The notes beneath the pieces were generated by a model. That model was not told the DNA's origin. It did not search any database and saw only the letters and a list, made by a program, of their open reading frames with translations. This document shows positions 3,341 to 43,588 of a stretch of 64,000 nucleotides of DNA, piece after piece; within the stretch, counting starts at the first letter, position 1; each line of letters opens with the position of its first letter. The translations under genes and the position numbers were made by a program. Source of the DNA: Candidatus Borrarchaeum weybense (lineage in GTDB: Archaea; Asgardarchaeota; Sifarchaeia; Borrarchaeales; Borrarchaeaceae); contig JAHQJS010000003.1 in NCBI GenBank assembly GCA_019057385.1, forward strand, positions 83,212-147,211, in the 5' to 3' direction.

Positions 3341-3408
3341 CTCTTCCTCATTATTTATCTAGTCTAAAATGCTATAAAAAGTCAATCCGCTATCCCATGA
3401 GTAAAGAG

Positions 3409-3585
3409 TGGTGCGGGGGATGGGATTTTCGTTCTGGCGGTTTATCGCCAAGGAATTCGAACCCACGCAGGCGATCGCGAAACCTAAGGCATCTAATGCT
3501 TCTCTACGCCACAGGATCCTGAGTCCTGCTCCTTTGGCCAAGTTCCCGTTACTCTCCATCGAGAGGAGACCTCGGACACCCCCGC
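3409..3585 (-). tRNA. tRNA-Leu(CAG) with 3 non-canonical introns (D-loop, variable arm, T-loop), CCA encoded
   Basis: GCGGGGG/CCCCCGC acceptor stem + ACCA. Anticodon arm CAGGA-CT-CAG-GA-TCCTG (anticodon at 3519-3521). GGGTTCGAA[insert]TCCC T-arm. Confidence 0.9.
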
Positions 3586-7661: not shown

Positions 7662-7759
7662 TATGAATTAAATCTTATCGTTAGTTCTTTCATCAATATA
7701 AGATAACTTAGTTTGATTCTTACCGTTCCTTTCATAATAGACATCTATTACAGCGAATA

Positions 7760-8054
7760 GTGTCTATCCACCCACGATAAGAACATGAGTGGAGGGCCCG
7801 CTAGGACGGTTAAGCGGGATACCTACCGCCATATAGGGTGCAGGCCTTGCGTGAACGAAACGATGATTTATTATCAGCGTTCCCGCAGAATCGACGGCGT
7901 ACGGGAGTGCTGGGCTGAAGTCCGTGAAGTGGTCCCGGGGCGAATGCTTAAACCTCCGGGTGCCTCATCTTACCATCAATTCTCACTTATATACTGGAGG
8001 ACCTGCTTTATAAACACCACGCCTCACGCGTTCACTGTGGAACCCCTTGCCCGC
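7760..8054 (-). ncRNA. Unassigned GC-rich structured RNA (family unknown; possibly a degenerate IS200/IS605 derivative)
   Basis: Clearly more GC-rich than its flanks, with many hairpins. CCACTCATG/CGTGGGTGG pairs fully only on the minus strand (two G-U pairs). TTTTATA box about 26 nt upstream of 8054. Confidence 0.45.
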
Positions 8055-8093
8055 GAAAGAATCGTCTATATTTGTCTATAAAATAAATAACTG

Positions 8094-8384
8094 TTAATCA
8101 CCCTCTTGTAACTTTTGTTTGATCACAAAAACTCGTATTTTTTCCTCTGCAATTATAAGTGTATCATTGATGGATTTAATTACAGAATGAGGAATTAAAA
8201 TTGTTCCTTTCTCATCGCGCGGAAATTTTTCAATATCTGGATGTTTAGTAGGCTTCACACACACCGCTAATAGGTGGCCATCTCGCGAATTAATTATGAA
8301 ATCAACTACCTTTCCCATAGCAGAACCTTTTTCATCAGTTACAGAAATACCAACTAAGTCCCGGATATCGATGATTTCCGACAT
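8094..8384 (-). CDS. PRC-barrel domain protein
   Basis: DLVGISVTDEKGSAMGKVVDFII...LIPHSVIKSINDTLII. Confidence 0.85.
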   Translation of the reverse strand: MSEIIDIRDLVGISVTDEKGSAMGKVVDFIINSRDGHLLAVCVKPTKHPDIEKFPRDEKGTILIPHSVIKSINDTLIIAEEKIRVFVIKQKLQEGD

Positions 8385-8634
8385 TTTTCATCCCATCAGA
8401 CCTTGCATGAGTCGGTCTATGTTAAATCAATATTTTTTGCTATTAATATCATCTGCTTCGAGTTATAAATTAGTCAAGTCATATTGACAGAACCTTTTCA
8501 AAAAGCAAAAATGAGAGTAGAATTGGAAAATTCAAAATTCGATTCAATAAATCTCGAATGAAAAGTGAAAACTAAAGAACGCTGTGCAATTATCTTCGTT
8601 TAAATCATACAAAAGTCTATCATAATGCAGGAAA

Positions 8635-8659
8635 TAGGAGGGAATAATCCCTCCTTATC
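8635..8659 (-). terminator. Hairpin closing the 3' side of the RAMP island RNA
   Basis: AGGAGGG-AATAAT-CCCTCCT inverted repeat just downstream (minus strand) of repeat copy 1. Confidence 0.4.
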
Positions 8660-8700
8660 TAATATTTACAGGAATGCCGATTAAGTCGCGGATATTTTTT

Positions 8701-8791
8701 TGACATTTTTCGTCCCCTGCGAGTCATTCATTCCCAACAAGTGAGGCGTCGGACCTCTAATTTGGTTCAGTCTCATGCACAAGAACGTGTC
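8701..8791 (-). repeat. RAMP-associated structured repeat, copy 1 (candidate ncRNA scaffold)
   Basis: 82/91 identical to 9813-9903. Outer stem GACA-CGTTCTTGTG/CGCAGGGGACG-AAAAA-TGTC and inner GAGG/CCTC hairpin. Confidence 0.85.
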
Positions 8792-8850
8792 CCCCGTGAT
8801 ATACGAAGAACATTCCGCCTTGTAACTCATTAAACCTCTTGAAAAGAGTC

Positions 8851-8859
8851 TATATAAAC
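8851..8859 (-). promoter_or_regulatory. TATA box for a transcript containing repeat copy 1
   Basis: GTTTATATA on the minus strand, just after the stop of 8881..9708, with no real gene downstream. Confidence 0.5.
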
Positions 8860-8880
8860 ACCGCGATTCAAAACAAAGAT

Positions 8881-9708
8881 TCATTCTTGCCATGTATACA
8901 AACCACTCTTCAAGTCATCAAGATAGAGATTTACCATAAGGAGTAGGTGATTTTTTAAAGATGAAAAGCCAAATTTTAGCGCTTCGCTGATCTTATCAAA
9001 CGCTTGACATTTTCGAATATAAGTATAAAGAGCATAAGGGGAATATTGACGCCTTTCTATCTCTATTTTTAATACATCGAAATCAATTTTTTCTAATTCT
9101 GTCACACGATAACGAGAGGACGCTGACCATCTAAATTTTCGAGAAATCATTGCAGATAGTCGGTCATAATGTTGTAATAAATAAAGCCAAAGAAAATCTT
9201 TTTCATCTATATCATAATTGTGATGATTCTTTGCAAGTTTGAAGACATCTTCGTCAGCTATATCAACATCAGTATAAATTTTACTTGGATGTCGATCAGT
9301 GCCTACAAAATCATGCAGGAGCATTGCTATAATTAACTTTTCCTGCATATCTGAGAGTTTAGGAAGTTTCTTACGAATCTTAATTCTTCTTGTAGTATAG
9401 AGAGGCTTTTTCTTGAGTTTTTTGAGAGAAGTCCAAAAGATTCGTCCCATCCCCTCACATGTATAACTTCCAACACTATCAATAGCAAGTGCTTCTTCAA
9501 GTTTATGTTCTGAAACGATAAACTCAATATTACCAAACCACGCCCTAAAGGTCATTGGCGCACGTCTTTGTCCTACCGTTAATTTTCCGAATACCCTGGG
9601 ACGACCTTTTATGGTCATCGCTCCAACGTCGGTAACTCCAAAATGTCTACGCTTTGAAACAATAGGAGTTTTTGTATAACCAATTAATTTAAAGTATTTC
9701 TGTGGCAT
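8881..9708 (-). CDS. Compact RAMP (Cas5-like) domain fused to an HD nuclease domain
   Basis: RAMP beta-1 (FKLIGYTKTPIV) and G-rich loop (VGSYTCEGMGRI), followed by HD motifs MLLHDF...NHH...YDRLSA. Confidence 0.7.
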   Translation of the reverse strand: MPQKYFKLIGYTKTPIVSKRRHFGVTDVGAMTIKGRPRVFGKLTVGQRRAPMTFRAWFGNIEFIVSEHKLEEALAIDSVGSYTCEGMGRIFWTSLKKLKKKPLYTTRRIKIRKKLPKLSDMQEKLIIAMLLHDFVGTDRHPSKIYTDVDIADEDVFKLAKNHHNYDIDEKDFLWLYLLQHYDRLSAMISRKFRWSASSRYRVTELEKIDFDVLKIEIERRQYSPYALYTYIRKCQAFDKISEALKFGFSSLKNHLLLMVNLYLDDLKSGLYTWQE

Positions 9709-9758
9709 TTTATTCCCTCTTATAAGATTTTACCTCCTCTTTGAACAAAAGAGAGGAG

Positions 9759-9771
9759 ATATAAACCTTGC
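9759..9771 (-). promoter_or_regulatory. Promoter motif GCAAGGTTTATAT upstream of the RAMP-HD gene
   Basis: Identical 13-mer at 10808-10820 upstream of the Cas7-like gene; contains a TATA box. Confidence 0.6.
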
Positions 9772-9812
9772 CAAAGTAAACACGTTTGCAACTGTTGTTT
9801 GTAAAGTGGGTA

Positions 9813-9903
9813 TGACATTTTTCGTTCCTTGCGAGTCATCCGTCCCCAACAATTGAGGCGTCGGACCTCTAAGCTGGTTCAGTCTCATGCACAAGAACGT
9901 ATC
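9813..9903 (-). repeat. RAMP-associated structured repeat, copy 2
   Basis: 82/91 identical to 8701-8791. Outer-stem differences keep pairing (G-U to A-U, C-G to U-G). Confidence 0.85.
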
Positions 9904-9962
9904 ACTCACATCAGTAAGTGATAAACCGTAATGAGATGAGAAAAAAAGTTGAAATAAATGTG

Positions 9963-10772
9963 TCACACAGCCACCTTCTCATCCTGTTTACTCATAGTAT
10001 TCAAAGAAGTTCTCCAATCCTCGATTTTACTTAGAGAAAGCGGAATTTCAGTGGTTTCTTCTATAATTTTATAGTTTCCTTCGCTATCCTCTTCGACTCT
10101 TCGAAAAGTCTCAACCTTCTGAAGAGCAATATTAAGGATTTTGACGCAACCATATCCACTTGACCGTCCTGCCCCAAGAATTTCTACGTAGAGCATTGCT
10201 TCTATAAGAAACTTGATTTCAACATCAGTTAGATTAGTGACATCAATTTGAAAGGAAAAAAATCCACTGAAATAACTCTCACGAAAGTCTTGGATGGGAG
10301 TACCATCATAGGCAAGCGCTATTCTGTTTTCACTAGAGATGTGGACATTTTGAACTGGCACTATTGTTATAAAATCTTTGTGTTTAATCGAGGCAATAGG
10401 GTCTGCTGCGACAACAATAGAGGACTTTTCACGGAAGGTGCCAAAGATTGTTCTGAGAATACAGGGAGGATCGCATGTACCAAGCGCATGAAATCCTTGC
10501 GGAAGAACACTTTTACCATCTTTAAGTTCAGTTTTTTCAGAACTATGACATACTTCGATGTTGCAGTCTTGAGCAAGTTCCATACAGGCATGTCTTAACA
10601 TCCCTCGGATACCTTTAATGTAATAAAATTTAGTATTGAACGTTTTTTCTCCATTCACATAAGGAAATTTCCCTAACAAGAGCATGCTAGAATTTTTCTG
10701 AATCGAGGCATTGATAGGCTTTGCTATGGGTGTAAAGGCGTGAACAACTATCTGGTTTTTGATTTTTCTCAT
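9963..10772 (-). CDS. Cas7-like RAMP superfamily protein
   Basis: IVVHAFTPI beta-1, IKGIRGMLRHA helix, Cys/His insertion ending CDPPCILRTIFG, C-terminal G-loop ILGAGRSSGYG. Confidence 0.85.
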   Translation of the reverse strand: MRKIKNQIVVHAFTPIAKPINASIQKNSSMLLLGKFPYVNGEKTFNTKFYYIKGIRGMLRHACMELAQDCNIEVCHSSEKTELKDGKSVLPQGFHALGTCDPPCILRTIFGTFREKSSIVVAADPIASIKHKDFITIVPVQNVHISSENRIALAYDGTPIQDFRESYFSGFFSFQIDVTNLTDVEIKFLIEAMLYVEILGAGRSSGYGCVKILNIALQKVETFRRVEEDSEGNYKIIEETTEIPLSLSKIEDWRTSLNTMSKQDEKVAV

Positions 10773-10807
10773 GTTTCCAACCTCAAATATATTTAGTACA
10801 AGTACCT

Positions 10808-10820
10808 ATATAAACCTTGC
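10808..10820 (-). promoter_or_regulatory. Promoter motif GCAAGGTTTATAT upstream of the Cas7-like gene
   Basis: Identical to 9759-9771. Confidence 0.6.
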
Positions 10821-11115
10821 TCAAAATAAACACTTTTTCTACTCTTGTTAGTAAAATGGGGTTTAAAATGACTTCCTTTTTAGAAATAAAGTATTTTAAA
10901 CAGGTTTTATGTGAAAAACCATTGTATGTTTAGAACCTGATTTATAAATCACAATGTAACATTCAATTTACATCATCATTTTTTTAAAAGAATAGTTGTT
11001 TGATTTAACAAAATTAAGTTTCTTCGGGAATTCAAAAAGAGTACATTGATGGTATCAACTAAACTAAAAATCGTTCGAAAAAAATAATTGTTCCATTGAT
11101 GGTTGCTAATAAAAA

Positions 11116-14100
11116 TTAGGGCAATAGATCTTTTACTGTAACTGGAGGACCCTTTTTCTGTGGTTTATAGATGCCTTCTAAATGTTGGAATCTTTCAAAC
11201 ATTAAGTGGAGAGTTTCCTTATCTGGAGCGTAAATAAAGGGGATGAATCGCTTATTTTCTAGCAAAAAATCCTTGAGTTGTACTGCACACTGCCTTAAAG
11301 CCTCCATTACTGTCATCTTCTGTTCAAGATAGTATATTTCTTGATTGAGTATATCATCAACTAGTCTCTCAACTTTGTAGTGTCCATTCCATGTTAGGTG
11401 ATAGAATTGTTCGTGTTCAAGCGTTTTACGCTTCTTGAAATCAGCTTTTGTAAATTCACCATACAAACATGCTAAAATTAGGGTGAGCCTGAACAAGGGA
11501 ATAAACATTTCTCGAAAATCAAAGATAGTGCCTAGAAAGGAGCGTTGGGTTTTTTTAAAGTGCAGTATCAGTTCATCCGGTACCCAAGAAAATCCTACTT
11601 CAGCGAGTGCTTTTCGACAGTAAAGGTTAAGATGACGATAAACAGCATTGAGTGCAGCACTAAAGGGTGTACGTGCTTTTACTTCTCCTAAAAGGACAAC
11701 GGTGGAAATATAGCGTTCTAGGGTACGACTAATGATCTCAAAGTAGGTTCCTCTTAGCAAACGTTTAGGGATTTCCCAGGCAACTCCTTCAACTAAGCCT
11801 TCAAACCCACGGAGGTTGTCAATATTACCCCTCCAATAGAGAAAAGTATATGCTACTCGATCCAGCAATTTAGATAAGAGCTCTTGAGCATTTTCAGCAG
11901 ATAACAACCCCTCTTTTTCAACTTGGAGTACTGAATTGGCTAGACCTATATCTTTACTTATTGTCAGAAGCCATGCTAGCAATTTGCCTCGTTCTGTTCC
12001 TCTGATTCGCTGAGCGGCATATTTCAGTTCGTCGGCTACCTGTTGTTTCTTTGGAGTTAGTTTATTTTGTGCAAAGAAACTACCTTTTGGTGTATTTGCA
12101 TCAATGAGTTTCTTGCTATATTTCTTACGAATGTATTGCGATATATCGCCACCTTCAATGATGATATTACGGATAGCACCGACTAAATACCGTTTTGTTT
12201 CTCTTCCGTCTTTTAGTGTATGAACAAATCGTTTTTTTCTAATATCGAGCCTTTCATTACACTTGACACGGATATTTCGTTTTGGTCTTCTGATATAGAC
12301 CTTTGTCTTTTTAACTCTCTGAACATAATTCCCGGGCTTACCTATAAGCAGTTCTAAATTTGTTTGCAATACATCACGATAACCCGGTTTTATTACAAGT
12401 TCACCATTAACGGTCAAATGATAACTGGAATTGCATTCAGGACAGACTGTATATTCCATATATGAGGACGGTAATTCCACAATGCCACGAGGTTTACAGT
12501 TTAAACATGTAATGCTGCCATTTGTTTCTTGCAATATTCTTATTTTACGTTTTTTTAACCTTTGAACATTTTCGTGATGTTCGCATGCACTCTTCCTTGG
12601 TGTGGCGTAAGGATTTCTTGCTCGTTTTCCTACTTGTTTGTTTAATTTGCAGTTTAACACACAAACATGTGCATGTTTCGATCTTCGACGGTCCTTTATA
12701 GGGTTTATCTGAATGAACTTACAAGATCCACAGGTGAGCCGAAGATGTTCAGGAATACTTGCGTTCACATCAGCTACATAGATTTTGGGGCGCCCTCGAA
12801 GCTGACCTTGAGAGATAACCTGTATTTGCTCTTGTATTTTTAACTGCTTGATGTGCTTAACTATCGTAGTATAGTGAACATTTTGATTGTATTGCTTGCG
12901 AACCTCTGACAAAATAAAATCGTAAGAAATGATTCCATGTTTTTTAATAATGTTATAAATTGCTTTATGAAGTCCGGGATATGGTTTCGGTCTTTGCTTT
13001 GGATACCAACGTCTCTTTTTAACTTTTTTCGCTTCATTAGCTTTAAGCTCATTATATTTAGCATTTAGTTTAGTTGAGAGTTCTTTAGCGACTCGTGCTT
13101 CTCTCAGGTCTCTTTGTCCCAAAAAGCTATAACTTGCTTCTGCGATCCATGAGGCTGTTTTCTTATGAGATTCAGCATCACCCAGTCGTATTTTTGCCTG
13201 AATTGCAGCTTCTGTTACTGTAGATCCTTGACTTAGTAACTTAATGAAGGCTGTATACTGTTGGGCGTTATACCGTTTGGTGTTACTTAGTTCACGCATA
13301 CATTGCCCAACAAGTTTGACTAATTGTTGGGAAAACTCCTGTTCTGAAGAGGAATGATTTGTGACAAAAAACTTCTTGATCCTTATTGCAATTTTGATCG
13401 GCAGTAAATATTTACTTGCCCAACGACCCTTGTCTGTTGCACAGAACCTTCCTCCATTTTTTCTAACAAAACCTTCCGTGATCAGCGTTTGAAGGATACC
13501 CTGTTTCTTATTTCTTTCATCAGACTCAGGTTTAGCCAATAGATCTCCTTTTAATTGCTGTTTGAAGTCTTTCAATTTGTCATAGGTGAATGGTGTGAGA
13601 AATAAGCGAAGTTCGCCGTATTTAACCTTGTTTGCAGTGGTTCTTTTCCTGATCCAAATGAAAAATGTTCGAGTTAATCGTTTCAAGTCGTTCGGCAGGG
13701 AACCTTTGTGTGCGTCGAATAGTATTAACAGTAAATGATTTTCATTATTAAGTTGGCATAGTTCCTCTTCTTTGGTCATAAGTGCACTATTCATTAGTTC
13801 GAACCAGTTCCGTAGCATTGTTTTGTATTGATGAAAGAAATAGTGCCTTTCAAGTTTGCTCAGTAATTGATTCGAGGATACAGAACCCTTAGCTATTAAT
13901 GTAAGTACAATATCTGCCATTGAAGAACGTGCTTGGCTTTTAATGCTATGTTCTTTCACTATCAGTTGTCCTTCAACGATTTGTATCTCCTTTTGTTTCA
14001 GAAGTTCTTGGTCGTTTCCAACAAAGATCAAGTCAGCATACCCAATCCTATGATGTCGCGGTCGTGCCGCCCTGCCACTCAGTTGTATAAGCAGTTGGGG

Positions 14101-15099
14101 GCTGAACATTTCAGCATCGTTGATTATCACTCGTTTAATCGGAAAGTTAACCCCCTCTCCGTATTGGATTGTTGAAACAAAGACCTGAAATTCGCCATTG
14201 TTAAGTCGCCTCATAGCTTCTCGTTGTTCTTTCTTACTGAGTCCTGCGTGACTGTAGCCAACTTTGAGATCGAAACCAGAATTCTTGAGAAAGATCTGCA
14301 ATATTTCAGCATATTTCTCAACCTGTTTTCGTGTGTAACAGAAGAGTTGCACGATTTTGATCTGATGTTCATCATTCGAAGGTTGCTCAAAGGTCTTTTT
14401 TATCAATCTAGCGAAAAGAAAAATCTTTTTTCGTTCAATTTGTTCTAATTTATTGCCTGAAATTCCAAAAGTCGACACAATAAGTGTCGATCGCCGCTCT
14501 TTTGTGTGTATAAGATGAGCATCGAGCCAACTTGCCAGATCTTCAGTATTACCTAATGTAGCCGAGAGATAGATAATTTGCGGACGAGGACGCAACCACG
14601 CTTTAGCATTAACAATTGCGGTTTCTAGGTGCACGCCCCGCCCTTTTTTGCCTAAATTGTGCAGTTCGTCAACTACCAGCAATCCCACTTGGTCTAAGAA
14701 TGGATATTCAAAATGTTTGGCTAGTAGTCCATTAAAGGATTCGTAGGTGATGACGAGAATATCCGCACTTTGAATCTCTTCAGGAGCTGGTCGATCATCT
14801 CCGCTGACCCTGAGGATGGTACATGTGTCTTGATACCACTCTTTGAATCTATCGTACATTTGATCGATTAGACGCTTGGTCGGCTCAAGGATCACACAGC
14901 GCAAACCTTTTCCTAGTATTTTTGTAGACATTATTTGAGCGATCAAGGTTTTTCCCGAAGCTGTGGGAGAGTACAATATCTTATCCTGTCTTTGCTTCCC
15001 AGAAAAACATGCTTCCCATTGAAAATCGTAGAGAGCTTTGATGTCAGCCTGTTCTAATCGTTGACGAATGAATTCGTAGTTAAACCCTCTTTTTGTCAT
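11116..15099 (-). CDS. SF2 (Ski2/Hel308-like) helicase - wHTH/Zn-finger - Cas1-like integrase fusion
   Basis: N-terminus: PTASGKT, VVDELH, LSAT, HAGL, QLSGRAAR. Middle: CGSC, CLNC, CPEC. C-terminus: Cas1-type LRGFEG, SAALNAVYRHL, GFSWVPDELILH, FDFREMFIP. Confidence 0.8.
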   Translation of the reverse strand: MTKRGFNYEFIRQRLEQADIKALYDFQWEACFSGKQRQDKILYSPTASGKTLIAQIMSTKILGKGLRCVILEPTKRLIDQMYDRFKEWYQDTCTILRVSGDDRPAPEEIQSADILVITYESFNGLLAKHFEYPFLDQVGLLVVDELHNLGKKGRGVHLETAIVNAKAWLRPRPQIIYLSATLGNTEDLASWLDAHLIHTKERRSTLIVSTFGISGNKLEQIERKKIFLFARLIKKTFEQPSNDEHQIKIVQLFCYTRKQVEKYAEILQIFLKNSGFDLKVGYSHAGLSKKEQREAMRRLNNGEFQVFVSTIQYGEGVNFPIKRVIINDAEMFSPQLLIQLSGRAARPRHHRIGYADLIFVGNDQELLKQKEIQIVEGQLIVKEHSIKSQARSSMADIVLTLIAKGSVSSNQLLSKLERHYFFHQYKTMLRNWFELMNSALMTKEEELCQLNNENHLLLILFDAHKGSLPNDLKRLTRTFFIWIRKRTTANKVKYGELRLFLTPFTYDKLKDFKQQLKGDLLAKPESDERNKKQGILQTLITEGFVRKNGGRFCATDKGRWASKYLLPIKIAIRIKKFFVTNHSSSEQEFSQQLVKLVGQCMRELSNTKRYNAQQYTAFIKLLSQGSTVTEAAIQAKIRLGDAESHKKTASWIAEASYSFLGQRDLREARVAKELSTKLNAKYNELKANEAKKVKKRRWYPKQRPKPYPGLHKAIYNIIKKHGIISYDFILSEVRKQYNQNVHYTTIVKHIKQLKIQEQIQVISQGQLRGRPKIYVADVNASIPEHLRLTCGSCKFIQINPIKDRRRSKHAHVCVLNCKLNKQVGKRARNPYATPRKSACEHHENVQRLKKRKIRILQETNGSITCLNCKPRGIVELPSSYMEYTVCPECNSSYHLTVNGELVIKPGYRDVLQTNLELLIGKPGNYVQRVKKTKVYIRRPKRNIRVKCNERLDIRKKRFVHTLKDGRETKRYLVGAIRNIIIEGGDISQYIRKKYSKKLIDANTPKGSFFAQNKLTPKKQQVADELKYAAQRIRGTERGKLLAWLLTISKDIGLANSVLQVEKEGLLSAENAQELLSKLLDRVAYTFLYWRGNIDNLRGFEGLVEGVAWEIPKRLLRGTYFEIISRTLERYISTVVLLGEVKARTPFSAALNAVYRHLNLYCRKALAEVGFSWVPDELILHFKKTQRSFLGTIFDFREMFIPLFRLTLILACLYGEFTKADFKKRKTLEHEQFYHLTWNGHYKVERLVDDILNQEIYYLEQKMTVMEALRQCAVQLKDFLLENKRFIPFIYAPDKETLHLMFERFQHLEGIYKPQKKGPPVTVKDLLP

Positions 15100-15640
15100 A
15101 ATAATGATCTGCCCCCTCAGCTTCGTCTAATTAGATATTAGCTAAAATTCATTTATAAAGCGGGTAAACTTTCAAATCGATTGCTAGAATGTTCTATTCG
15201 ATAAAAAACAAGTTTGCCTTCGGCATAGTTACCTTCGCTATGTCGCTTCTCAAAAAAAAACCACCGTTGAAGAAGGTAATTAATCCTTCTCTTCAATGAT
15301 AGAGGAGGGTTCGATTTTAATCACCTATAGAACATAATGAAATACAGAGGACAAAAAACTACAATAAGACTTATTGCTTCCAAAGTATTTAAACTCGACA
15401 ACTCGTGATTTAAGTAGTTAATCAAGAAGGCTAAACTTCTTAGAAAATATGGTAGAAGAATCTTCATCGAAAAAGGTTTTTGAGGGAAAAGAAAAACATC
15501 TGTGACATTGTTCCTACTATAAGTTTGCCGATAAAGTTAAAAAAAAGACTTCGTATAGATATTGTCCAATACTTTGGCACAATAATGTAACTCGTGGACT
15601 ATTTTAATAATATAAGTTCCCTTGTAATCAAACAATTGAA

Positions 15641-15817
15641 GCGGGGGTGTCCGAGATCTCCTCTCAATGGAGAGTAACGGGAACTTGGCCAAAGGAGCAG
15701 GACTGAGGCTCCTGTGGCGTAGAGAAGCATTAGATGCCTTAGGTTTCGCGATCGCCTGCGTGGGTTCGAAGGAATAAAGCAAAATGGCTTATTCCGAAAA
15801 TCCCATCCCCCGCACCA
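15641..15817 (+). tRNA. tRNA-Leu(GAG) with 3 non-canonical introns, CCA encoded
   Basis: Near copy of 3409-3585. Anticodon GAG at 15705-15707; different T-loop intron. Confidence 0.9.
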
Positions 15818-15906
15818 CTCTTCACTCACGGAACAAATTACTGGTTTTTAATGGGTTAAATATGCGCCTTAATGTTGCAACATAATGTATTGTCAATTTT
15901 CTCTTA

Positions 15907-16221
15907 GTGAGCTACCTCGTGCTAAAGCTTTGAGGCTTCCTGCTTCTACGACAGACTCGATCCCCTGGCGGGTTACGGAGGTCTTATCTCCACAGGCTTA
16001 ACATCCCTACGCCCCGTAGGTACGGTTAACCATCGTGATGCAATCGAAGTATGCATCTTGACTACAAGTGTGCGTGTGATCCCTCCAATTGCAGTTGATA
16101 TCTCGTCATACCAGCTATATAACTCTTAGGGAGACCCCTCGATGCAAGTGATAAAAGTGAACACATATTATTGCAATTCATCACCACGCTGAAGCTTTGG
16201 TGCTTTCTTGCTCAGCTACTC
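15907..16221 (-). mobile_element. Non-autonomous IS200/IS605 (TnpB-type) miniature element
   Basis: Subterminal hairpins, right end ...TAGCTCAC, TTAC next to the left end (16222-16225). Homologous blocks at both ends of 43000-43588. Confidence 0.8.
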
Positions 16222-16243
16222 GTAATTTTTCATTAGATTTCTT

Positions 16244-42999: not shown

Positions 43000-43588
43000 G
43001 TGAACTACCTCACGCTAAAGCAGTGAGGCTTCCTGCTTCCACGACCGAACTTGCTGTCACATAGGGAATACCATTTAAGTATTCCAGTGATACCACAGTA
43101 GAGGATTCAGTCTCCACAGGCTTAACATCCCTACGTCCCGTAGGTACAACCACGTGTTGGTTTAATCCTTCGGTCTCGATATTCACACTGGCATTATGGT
43201 CTCTGTCCATCACTAACCCACAGACCTCACAGACATAGACTCGTTCATCCAACCCGATTTCCCGGATATTACCGCAACGCGAACAGGTTTTGGTAGAAGG
43301 AAACCACCGATCCACTTTAATCGCAGTCTAATGGAGTATGCACCTTTACTTCAAGTGTGCGTGTGATCCCTCCTTCGGAATGCGGCTGATAGCATGCTCT
43401 GAACTGTGACACTACCAAAAGTCTTAGTGTTGGAGGTAGCGATCCCAGCCTTTCACTCGCTAGTCATCTTAGTATAAGAGGCACACCACTATTAAAGTAT
43501 TAGACAGACCCCTTAATGAAAGTGAACATACACACCTACCGCAATTCATCACCAAGCTGAAGCTGTGGTGCTTTCTTGCTTTGTTCAA
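43000..43588 (-). mobile_element. Internally deleted IS200/IS605 element retaining the tnpB 3' end
   Basis: Ends homologous to 15907-16221, right end ...TAGTTCAC, TTAC at 43589-43592. Confidence 0.88.
43010..43315 (-). pseudogene. tnpB: TnpB C-terminal fragment (Zn ribbon + RuvC-III)
   Basis: WFPSTKTCSRCG...CEVCGLVMDRDHNASVNI; RuvC-I is absent. Confidence 0.88.

Follow-up and report, generated by a model that had tools for sequence, protein, structure and literature searches.

A helicase-Cas1 fusion gene at the core of a small mobile element with structured RNAs in an Asgard archaeon

In the genome of Candidatus Borrarchaeum weybense, a DNA helicase is genuinely fused to a CRISPR-type integrase, and the gene for this protein forms the core of a small mobile element. 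The fusion gene heads a 6.9-kb element that also contains cas7, cas5-HD and two structured RNAs of 125 nt, and it is located in the window, i.e., the whole stretch of 64,000 nt that was analyzed (coordinates in Table 1). The element apparently derives its guide RNA from the host DNA that adjoins the point of insertion. The preferred reading, in which about even confidence is placed, is that the fusion serves as integrase-motor in a mobile ARAMP (Asgard RAMP) element with a two-stage life cycle.

Table 1. Features of the element, with positions in the window
Feature	Position	Strand	Basis
Whole inserted element, 6.9 kb	8376..15292	-	empty alleles in three congeneric genomes; left junction 15293|15292
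Helicase-wHTH-Zn-Cas1 fusion gene, 1327 aa	11116..15099	-	unbroken ORF, Pfam, PADLOC, alignment of relatives
Ski2/Hel308-type helicase cassette, residues 1-690 (RecA1, RecA2, winged helix, ratchet)	13030..15099	-	model, PDB sequence match
Putative winged helix-turn-helix, residues 710-778	12766..12972	-	model topology; weak Pfam MCM4_WHD
Two Zn-binding modules, C790/793/813/839 and C865/868/886/889	12433..12732	-	Cys kept in 8/8 copies
Cas1 domain, residues about 940-1295; E1100, N1151, H1180, D1194, E1197	11215..12282	-	alignment, profile, model
cas7 promoter region matched by guide 1	10823..10862	-	sequence match
cas7-like RAMP gene (Csm3-like), 269 aa	9963..10772	-	Pfam RAMPs 2.9e-6; PADLOC Csm3 2.3e-8
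RNA scaffold 1 (about 125 nt)	9813..9938	-	alignment
Guide 1	9773..9812	-	matches own cas7 promoter; mismatches at 7, 13, 19, 25, 37
cas5-like/HD fusion gene, 275 aa	8881..9708	-	conserved LLHDF, HH, YDR motifs (alignment)
RNA scaffold 2	8701..8826	-	alignment
6-nt A tag and guide 2	8664..8700	-	copy of host sequence at insertion point
Hairpin 3' of guide 2, probable terminator	8636..8657	-	predicted
Replacement, recoded start of disrupted PRC-barrel gene (gene 8094-8384)	8337..8384	-	comparison with empty alleles

Domains of the fusion protein

A reading of the DNA made from the sequence alone had proposed a fusion of helicase, wHTH, Zn finger and Cas1, and all of these modules could be assigned on the single ORF, the wHTH least firmly. 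The SF2 motifs (Q25-28, Walker A SPTASGKT at residue 44, DELH at 144, SAT at 179 and motif VI QLSGRAAR at 339) were located at 14.0-15.1 kb, where they had been expected, and Pfam matches to DEAD (3e-27) and Helicase_C (5e-15) agreed. The top PDB sequence match of the helicase was Hjm (2zj2, 7.8e-33), and structure comparison of the model yielded Brr2 (Z 33.6) and Hel308 (2p6r; Z 27.5, rmsd 3.7 Å, 537 residues). All motifs and the four-domain cassette with winged-helix and ratchet domains are thus shared with Hel308/Hjm and Ski2-like helicases, whereas the attached Cas1 and scores far below the equivalog cut-offs set the fusion protein apart. An assignment as Hel308 orthologue was rejected (148 bits versus a cut-off of 1216), as was Cas3, because the fusion protein has no HD domain and no Cas3 model was among the matches listed. 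Further Ski2-like genes are encoded in the host genome.

Residues 710-778 may form a winged helix, as is suggested by the HHH-EE topology of the model and weak Pfam matches (E 0.06). The Cys clusters that had been noticed at about 12.4-12.75 kb belong to two modules, with C790 to C889 at 12732-12435. The eight listed cysteines are kept in all full-length copies (8/8), while C817 varies, and the second module is similar to the ribbon of RNAP subunit P (E 0.008, family profile versus PDB).

The Cas1 domain was missed by single-sequence searches of this copy against PDB, Pfam and NCBIfam, and a profile was required. PADLOC matched Cas1 to the fusion ORF (7.7e-7), and the family profile retrieved AfCas1 (4n06, 2.6e-18) and a casposase (6opm, 2.3e-17) from the PDB. 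The AlphaFold model of the region (pLDDT 78.6) superimposed on AfCas1 4n06 with a Z of 26.7 (rmsd 2.3 Å, 256 residues), and the casposase 6opm was tied for best (Z 26.0). The matches span the beta and the helical domain of the two-domain Cas1 fold, so that both the Cas1-like region proposed at about 11.2-12.3 kb and its N-terminal beta domain were recovered; a C-terminus that does not model as Cas1 would have spoken against the proposal. The metal-binding residues E, H and D/E are present in the Cas1 order that had been read from the sequence (E1100, H1180, D1194/E1197), and in a profile alignment they coincide with three motifs of structurally solved Cas1 proteins, GIEG, FLH and DLMENF. Across 22 relatives (18-78% identity) no substitution was seen at E1100 or H1180, and the conservation of D1194 is at least 90%. 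Superposition on solved Cas1 suggests that E1100, H1180 and D1194 cluster into an active site. The dN/dS values of 0.10-0.19 in the helicase core (RecA) and Cas1 catalytic domains revealed purifying selection. Fold, residues and selection together give good support to the earlier proposal of an active integrase coupled to a translocase, the activity itself being a prediction.

A Cas1 phylogeny had been suggested as a check. The fusions form a clade (100/99) separate from ten short Cas1 proteins, the host's own among them, which make up a clade with 100/100 support, and thus do not group with canonical CRISPR adaptation Cas1; the tree is unrooted and was built without casposases, so that it bears on the distinction from CRISPR Cas1 and not on relative closeness to casposon Cas1.

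The element, its ends and its copies

Three genes only are present in the element, and Cas1 is its sole integrase-family protein; PolB, Cas2, an array, a TIR and a TSD are missing. The absence of array and Cas2 had been noted before and holds for the element, while the genome has a canonical cas1-cas2 with array elsewhere (at C4:148-155 kb, where its sole cas2 and array lie); neither is adjacent to the fusion Cas1. No spacer of the host array matched the loci examined. The element also lacks a TnpB/IscB nuclease with TnpA, and ORFs for TnsA/B/C or TniQ were not found within 8376-15292. The Cas5 half of the cas5-like/HD protein is a putative assignment from gene context, and the atlas HD clusters, with scores of 0.76-0.78, are a lead only; all atlas searches scored below 0.8. 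A related-locus search and tblastn against plasmids gave no matches.

A contig from another run, 99% identical, loses its match at 15293. Six copies reside at six loci in one genome, and empty or flank-joined alleles were found for copies A, B, C and F and for the right flank of D. The ftsY site is occupied in another species as well, with 89.5% identity in element and right flank and 77.9% in the left flank. A scaffold pattern search yielded matches in Ca. Borrarchaeum/Sifarchaeum. The earlier idea that the protein might mobilise the island is supported for the element, which is an insertion relative to empty alleles and occurs at many sites. No clean excision joint or circle was among the contig matches listed.

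Movement of a casposon-like element by terminal inverted repeats is very improbable. The casposase is a joint best structural match, but the longest inverted match between the element ends is 8-9 nt, a family B polymerase gene is lacking, and A, B and L141 have no target duplication, which in casposons is 14-27 bp; for this copy the mapped ends refute such movement. A 130-nt inverted repeat (3456-3585 / 15641-15770) was rejected as TIRs, because it consists of two intron-containing tRNA-Leu genes outside the element, which were missed by ARAGORN and also occur in the empty alleles.

In many scaffold-bearing insertions, such as L141, L176 and L132, no cas1 was present in the sequence examined, so that Cas1 works in trans, was lost, or is unneeded. 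Conversely, related helicase-Cas1 fusions exist as solo genes without cas7, cas5 or scaffold, and hence the fusion did not evolve for the scaffold RNA; a motif common upstream of the solo genes was rejected as element end, as it resembles a promoter. It is rather unlikely that Cas5-HD cutting and host recombination alone move the element, with the helicase-Cas1 as a solo-element passenger or in another job (nuclease, repair, end processing). Elements without cas1 but with complete flanks, the solo genes, the lack of TIR and TSD, and one fusion copy broken into 567 + 781 aa would fit this. The constant gene order in all full copies and the strong purifying selection on both domains argue against it, and homology cannot account for precise joints to unrelated sites.

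Scaffold RNAs, tags and guides

The scaffold alignment contains compensatory changes in 13 of 26 pairs; single-sequence folding is weak (z -1.6), the structural signal coming from the alignment, and Rfam gave no match to the scaffold. The sequencing runs listed as containing the element included no RNA data set. Guide 2 is identical to the empty alleles at 31/32 and 30/32 positions. At 19 further, distinct sites from other genomes and metagenomes, scaffold and a 6-7-nt tag are joined directly to host DNA. Compared with scaffold-free G000 DNA, identity is 28% at tail positions 1-7 and 80% at positions 8-40; homology begins at position 7-8 and at most sites extends beyond 100 nt. A (6|7), B (7|8) and L141 (7|8) share this end point in their left flank, and the L176 flank is identical up to position 6 (36/36) and recoded from 7. 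L092, C and F show junction shifts of a few bases, and the left ends have no common sequence. L176 and L029 carry recoded duplicates of 37-62 bp, which might be old target duplications. No 5' motif (TAM/PAM) was detected in the 19 targets except for T at position 6 in 12 of them.

Since the host chromosome continues past the scaffold in most copies, it is seemingly the scaffold end that has been inserted, which would turn the host flank into the guide. The alternative that new guide segments are inserted beside the repeats, as had been considered, thus probably has the direction reversed. At the DNA level, the guide corresponds to the flank beside the end of a structured RNA, as in IS200/IS605 OMEGA systems. 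A defence or regulatory system (ARAMP/HRAMP proposal), with guides acquired by Cas1 and merely coincidental matches to the host, was predicted in the published summary (PMC8730458), and the autoregulatory promoter-directed guide would agree with it. It is nevertheless improbable and largely refuted by the junction mapping: of the 38 distinct tails that come from other genomes, 35 have a counterpart in the host chromosome or in another G000 scaffold tail, and this match lies at the insertion point.

The promoter-directed guides accept a mismatch at every sixth base: 20 of 30 positions in the series 7, 13, 19 and so on are mismatched, versus 12 of 165 elsewhere. In all 15 coding targets, in both gene orientations, the wobble positions of the codons coincide with tail positions that equal 1 mod 3 (nominal p 7e-8, which is optimistic because guides and sites are related), and by inspection the same register was found in A, B, D and F. 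This wobble register indicates that the guides are under selection.

Such selection speaks for a CAST-like process, which is possible but unlikely. The guide would be present beforehand (Cas1-made spacer or recombination), Cas7/Cas5 would mark the site, and helicase-Cas1 would integrate at the 5' boundary of the guide every time. The fixed junction position, the discrete 31-45-nt guides with hairpin in A, B, D, L136, L146 and L158, and one guide that is derived from a promoter and not from a flank would be in line with it. However, most scaffolds pass directly into long host DNA without discrete spacer, and Cas2, a repeat duplication and a conserved left end are missing.

Proposed life cycle and comparison with known systems

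In the first stage of the preferred two-stage cycle, Cas1 would join the scaffold and its 6-7-nt tag, the only conserved end, to a new chromosomal position, and the host DNA beyond the scaffold would become a guide once it is transcribed through, as with the TnpB omega RNA. In the second stage, Cas7/Cas5-HD with the scaffold-guide RNA would locate empty alleles, the target would be opened where tag and guide meet, and the element would be copied in; the Hel308-type helicase would unwind the DNA and homology would resolve the other side. Pairing of the tag may mark self, so that the own locus and the own promoter would be bound and not cut, and disrupted genes would be rescued by recoded, guide-resistant duplicate ends. 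Cas1 usually leaves a target duplication. Points against this mechanism are the cas1-less insertions, the absence of a shared left end together with drifting junctions, A, B and L141 without duplication, and the solo fusions.

That this is a categorically new mobile element is judged slightly less probable than the cycle itself: a helicase-Cas1 integrase would generate its own guide through the joint between RNA scaffold and host DNA, site-specific homing with gene rescue would be driven by one long scaffold RNA and a class 1 effector of two proteins, and Cas1 and Cas7/Cas5 would cooperate without CRISPR. For the ARAMP Cas1, the scaffold-tag end can thereby be proposed as a concrete substrate, along with an RNA partner and the rule that the target boundary lies at tail position 6-8; three proteins and one RNA would suffice for direct tests. 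Were this reading correct, a mobile element would combine a casposon-type Cas1 with a class 1 effector, which is relevant to the question of how adaptation and interference were united in CRISPR, and it would constitute a compact insertion system addressed by RNA. The conversion of adjoining host DNA into a guide would be a novel route of DNA spread.

The gene set has probably been published as ARAMP, and the helicase fusion was likely already described in the 2020 paper; the sequence-only reading had not recognized it as such. ARAMP (Makarova et al. 2020 CRISPR J), as summarized in PMC8730458 and PMC12669027, is array-less with a distinct Cas1 and an enigmatic mechanism, and these summaries name no RNA, guide or insertion sites. 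Asgard host, diverged Cas7 (HMM) and Cas5 (context only), a nuclease domain, the absence of an array and a divergent Cas1 are shared, whereas the nuclease is HD here and HNH/PD-(D/E)xK in the summaries. A literature search that did not extend to subscription papers revealed no paper on an RNA-guided Asgard Cas1 element.

Casposons likewise are mobile elements that carry Cas1 but neither Cas2 nor an array. The element described here differs in that it lacks PolB, TIR and TSD, in the N-terminal helicase, wHTH and Zn modules of its Cas1 protein, and in the class 1 effector and the RNA that accompany it. IS200/IS605 TnpB is alike in working, with a structured RNA at the element end and a flank as guide, which suits homing; here the effector is Cas7/Cas5-HD instead of RuvC and the integrase Cas1 instead of Y1 or serine. 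aCas1-TnpB loci occur in Asgard (PMC10691335). As in CAST, a Cas complex would address the insertion site, and an autoregulatory promoter-directed guide is present, but TnsA/B/C, TniQ, array and transposon ends are absent. CAST inserts tens of bases away, in contrast to the element described here, which lies at the guide boundary.

The fusion protein and its Cas1 domain

The sequence-only reading had described a helicase-winged helix-Zn finger-Cas1 fusion with apparently intact catalytic residues, and this was confirmed. The ORF of 1327 aa is uninterrupted, its N-terminal part contains DEAD and Helicase_C domains (Pfam), and archaeal Hjm/Hel308 was the closest solved relative of the helicase in a PDB sequence search. 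The predicted model of residues 1-795 matched Brr2, the Pol theta helicase and Hel308 across residues 1-690 (Z 27-34), and therefore a complete four-domain Ski2-like cassette was assigned. The helicase motifs were retained in 8/8 full-length copies, and the dN/dS of the RecA domains was 0.12-0.13. Residues 710-778 tentatively model as a winged helix, and eight conserved cysteines probably form two Zn modules.

The last 360 residues were identified as Cas1 (PADLOC, 7.7e-7), and the profile of this region matched AfCas1 and casposase, both at about 1e-17. The C-terminus indeed modelled as Cas1, with Z 26.7 and an rmsd of 2.3 Å to AfCas1 (4n06). E1100, R1125, R1129, N1151 and H1180 were invariant and D1194 was almost invariant in 22 relatives; the superposition suggests that the E/H/D triad clusters. 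Together with a dN/dS of 0.10-0.19 in the helical domain, fold and conserved residues give good support to the earlier proposal of an active integrase coupled to a translocase, the activity itself being predicted from sequence and model.

In an unrooted Cas1 tree, computed without casposases, the fusion clade (100/99) was separate from the Cas1s of canonical size, among them that of the host itself, which is encoded by a distinct cas1-cas2 pair adjoining a 49-spacer array. Cas1-bearing long ORFs are present in several further families of the phylum. Neither cas7, cas5 nor a scaffold was found near distant helicase-Cas1 fusions (25-30% identity) at the loci examined, and thus the fusion predates, or is independent of, the RAMP partnership. 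Solo fusions of 1140-2361 aa, lacking scaffold and RAMP genes, were seen at L030, L031, L032, L094 and L095. Several lie near TnpB genes, and three have a common upstream promoter-like motif. At L095:3829-5787, two genes flanked by 80-100-nt repeats adjoin TnpB and the 2361-aa fusion.

Gene content and insertion of the element

The gene set fits ARAMP as outlined in the summaries in PMC8730458 and PMC12669027. It is probably already known under this name, and the helicase-Cas1 fusion may be known too.

Features of the element and its surroundings (window positions)
Feature	Position	Strand	Remark
Element	8376-15292		
Fusion gene	11116-15099	minus	
cas7	9963-10772	minus	downstream of fusion
Scaffold 1		minus	between cas7 and cas5-HD
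cas5-HD	8881-9708	minus	
Scaffold 2		minus	after cas5-HD
MITE-like element	15906-16226		320 bp
Partial MITE-like copy	43000-43580		
Insertion	7723-8102		380 bp
tRNA-Leu gene	3400-3585	minus	
tRNA-Leu gene	15641-15825	plus	

The genome contains six cassette copies at unrelated loci, one with a split fusion. It also has decayed copies that lack cas1, and the scaffold matches it at about 26 places. In the split copy (D, G000 C4:417430-421468) the ORFs comprise 567 and 781 aa. Three congeneric genomes have an empty site, where the PRC-barrel gene directly abuts window position 15293, and the element boundaries follow from this. From the insertion point on, the 32 bases 3′ of scaffold 2 agree with the empty alleles, with 31/32 and 30/32 positions identical. 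The resident PRC-barrel gene has a new start with 6/32 and 4/32 differences from the empty alleles, and only 9/230 and 13/230 downstream of it. No TIR, TSD or polymerase was found in the element; a casposon fits poorly and is barely conceivable.

Other arrangements were also observed. In another family, a differently organised ARAMP combines a Cas1 fusion (1302 aa) with a separate MrfA-like helicase, cas7, cas5-HD and two unknown genes (L049:6485-16136, where the scaffold was not detected). A more distant cas7/cas5-HD pair lacks Cas1 and this scaffold (L096:8631-10275, G000 C5). One element (L041:1300-3020) carries four scaffolds, and three of them follow one another in the space separating cas7 from cas5-HD, so that the scaffold has expanded in the manner of an array. 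Variable TPR/LRR-like repeat-protein genes, missing from the window's copy, lie within or beside the left part, upstream of the fusion, at L036, L037, L039 and L040.

The MITE-like element has 20 near-full genome copies and is missing from this site in the congeneric genomes G002 and G004. The 380-bp insertion, missing from relatives and without a match in Rfam, recurs at full length at C5:217999-218380 and in shorter form at other places. An apparent long inverted repeat turned out to be two tRNA-Leu genes (CAG, GAG), both with several apparent introns and not detected by ARAGORN.

Junctions with host DNA and the proposed mobility

Scaffold tails (the DNA directly 3′ of the scaffold, with a tag of 6-7 nt and then the guide) from other genomes and metagenomes were compared with this genome. 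At 19 distinct scaffold-free sites, identity was 28% at tail positions 1-7 and 80% at positions 8-40, and most tails run on as host DNA for >100 nt. In the copies for which the left flank, opposite the scaffold end, was available, it stops at the same tail position (copy A 6|7, copy B 7|8, L141 7|8). At L176 it is identical through position 6, followed by a recoded copy restoring the gene end; at L029 a recoded start, placed in the left flank, likewise restores a radical-SAM gene that has the opposite orientation. Left ends had no common sequence among the copies compared. Scaffold plus tag is the sole fixed end of the element. Of the two roles considered earlier, mobilisation of the island is supported, for the element itself, by the empty alleles and many sites. 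Insertion of new guides beside the repeats probably has the order reversed, since in most copies the scaffold end seems to have been joined to host DNA.

It is proposed that Cas1 would join the scaffold-tag end to a new site and thereby capture host flank as guide, that Cas7/Cas5-HD would find empty alleles, and that the helicase would assist copying of the element into them, with homology resolving the other side. This whole scheme is the most likely one, with about an even chance of being correct. The main rival, a CAST-like scheme with the guide made before insertion, is unlikely; both require an active Cas1. Mobility through HD cutting and host recombination alone is distinctly unlikely, in spite of the insertions that occur without Cas1 and of the lack of any Cas1 footprint such as a TSD. 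RNA-addressed mobility of such an element was not found in the literature searched. The present analysis contributes the map of junctions at 19 sites, the interpretation of the flank as guide, the register of wobble bases, the contrast in tag pairing and the fusions that occur alone.

Serial scaffolds spaced 150-500 bp from one another within host DNA occur at L040:2956-3580, L137 and L173, and after each scaffold the host sequence resumes with its next piece; at one of these loci the tag region provides the GTG start of a probable GIY-YIG gene, assigned by motif. L136 and L158 contain single inverted scaffold-guide units next to an uninterrupted but recoded target gene.

Predicted scaffold RNA and target rules

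The consensus of 26 scaffolds showed compensatory change in 13/26 pairs of the predicted RNA structure. The scaffold pattern matched only Ca. Borrarchaeum, Ca. Sifarchaeum and one Promethearchaeota MAG, which places the host within this group of Asgard archaea. The tail of scaffold 1 matches the cas7 promoter, and in five divergent copies mismatches fell at positions 7, 13, 19, 25, 31 and 37 (20/30 at this six-base register versus 12/165 elsewhere). Mismatch at every sixth position is known as the signature of Cas7 filaments, and the promoter guides carry it here within non-coding DNA.

Tail position 6 was paired in 10/10 promoter targets but in only 1/19 insertion targets, which suggests that the tag mediates a type III-like self recognition; the window's own target deviates at this position. 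A defence system fits the element poorly and is very improbable. In 15/15 coding targets, in both orientations, the third codon base lies at tail position 1 mod 3, and therefore each flipped-out base is a wobble base. We read this as selection, during the proposed homing, for guides that tolerate synonymous variation. In agreement with such guide selection, the ftsY site is occupied in a second species also, and the divergence of 'empty' alleles peaks in the protospacer, with 13/32 differences at D against 26/200 and 7/150 outside it, and 8/36 at B against 27/300.
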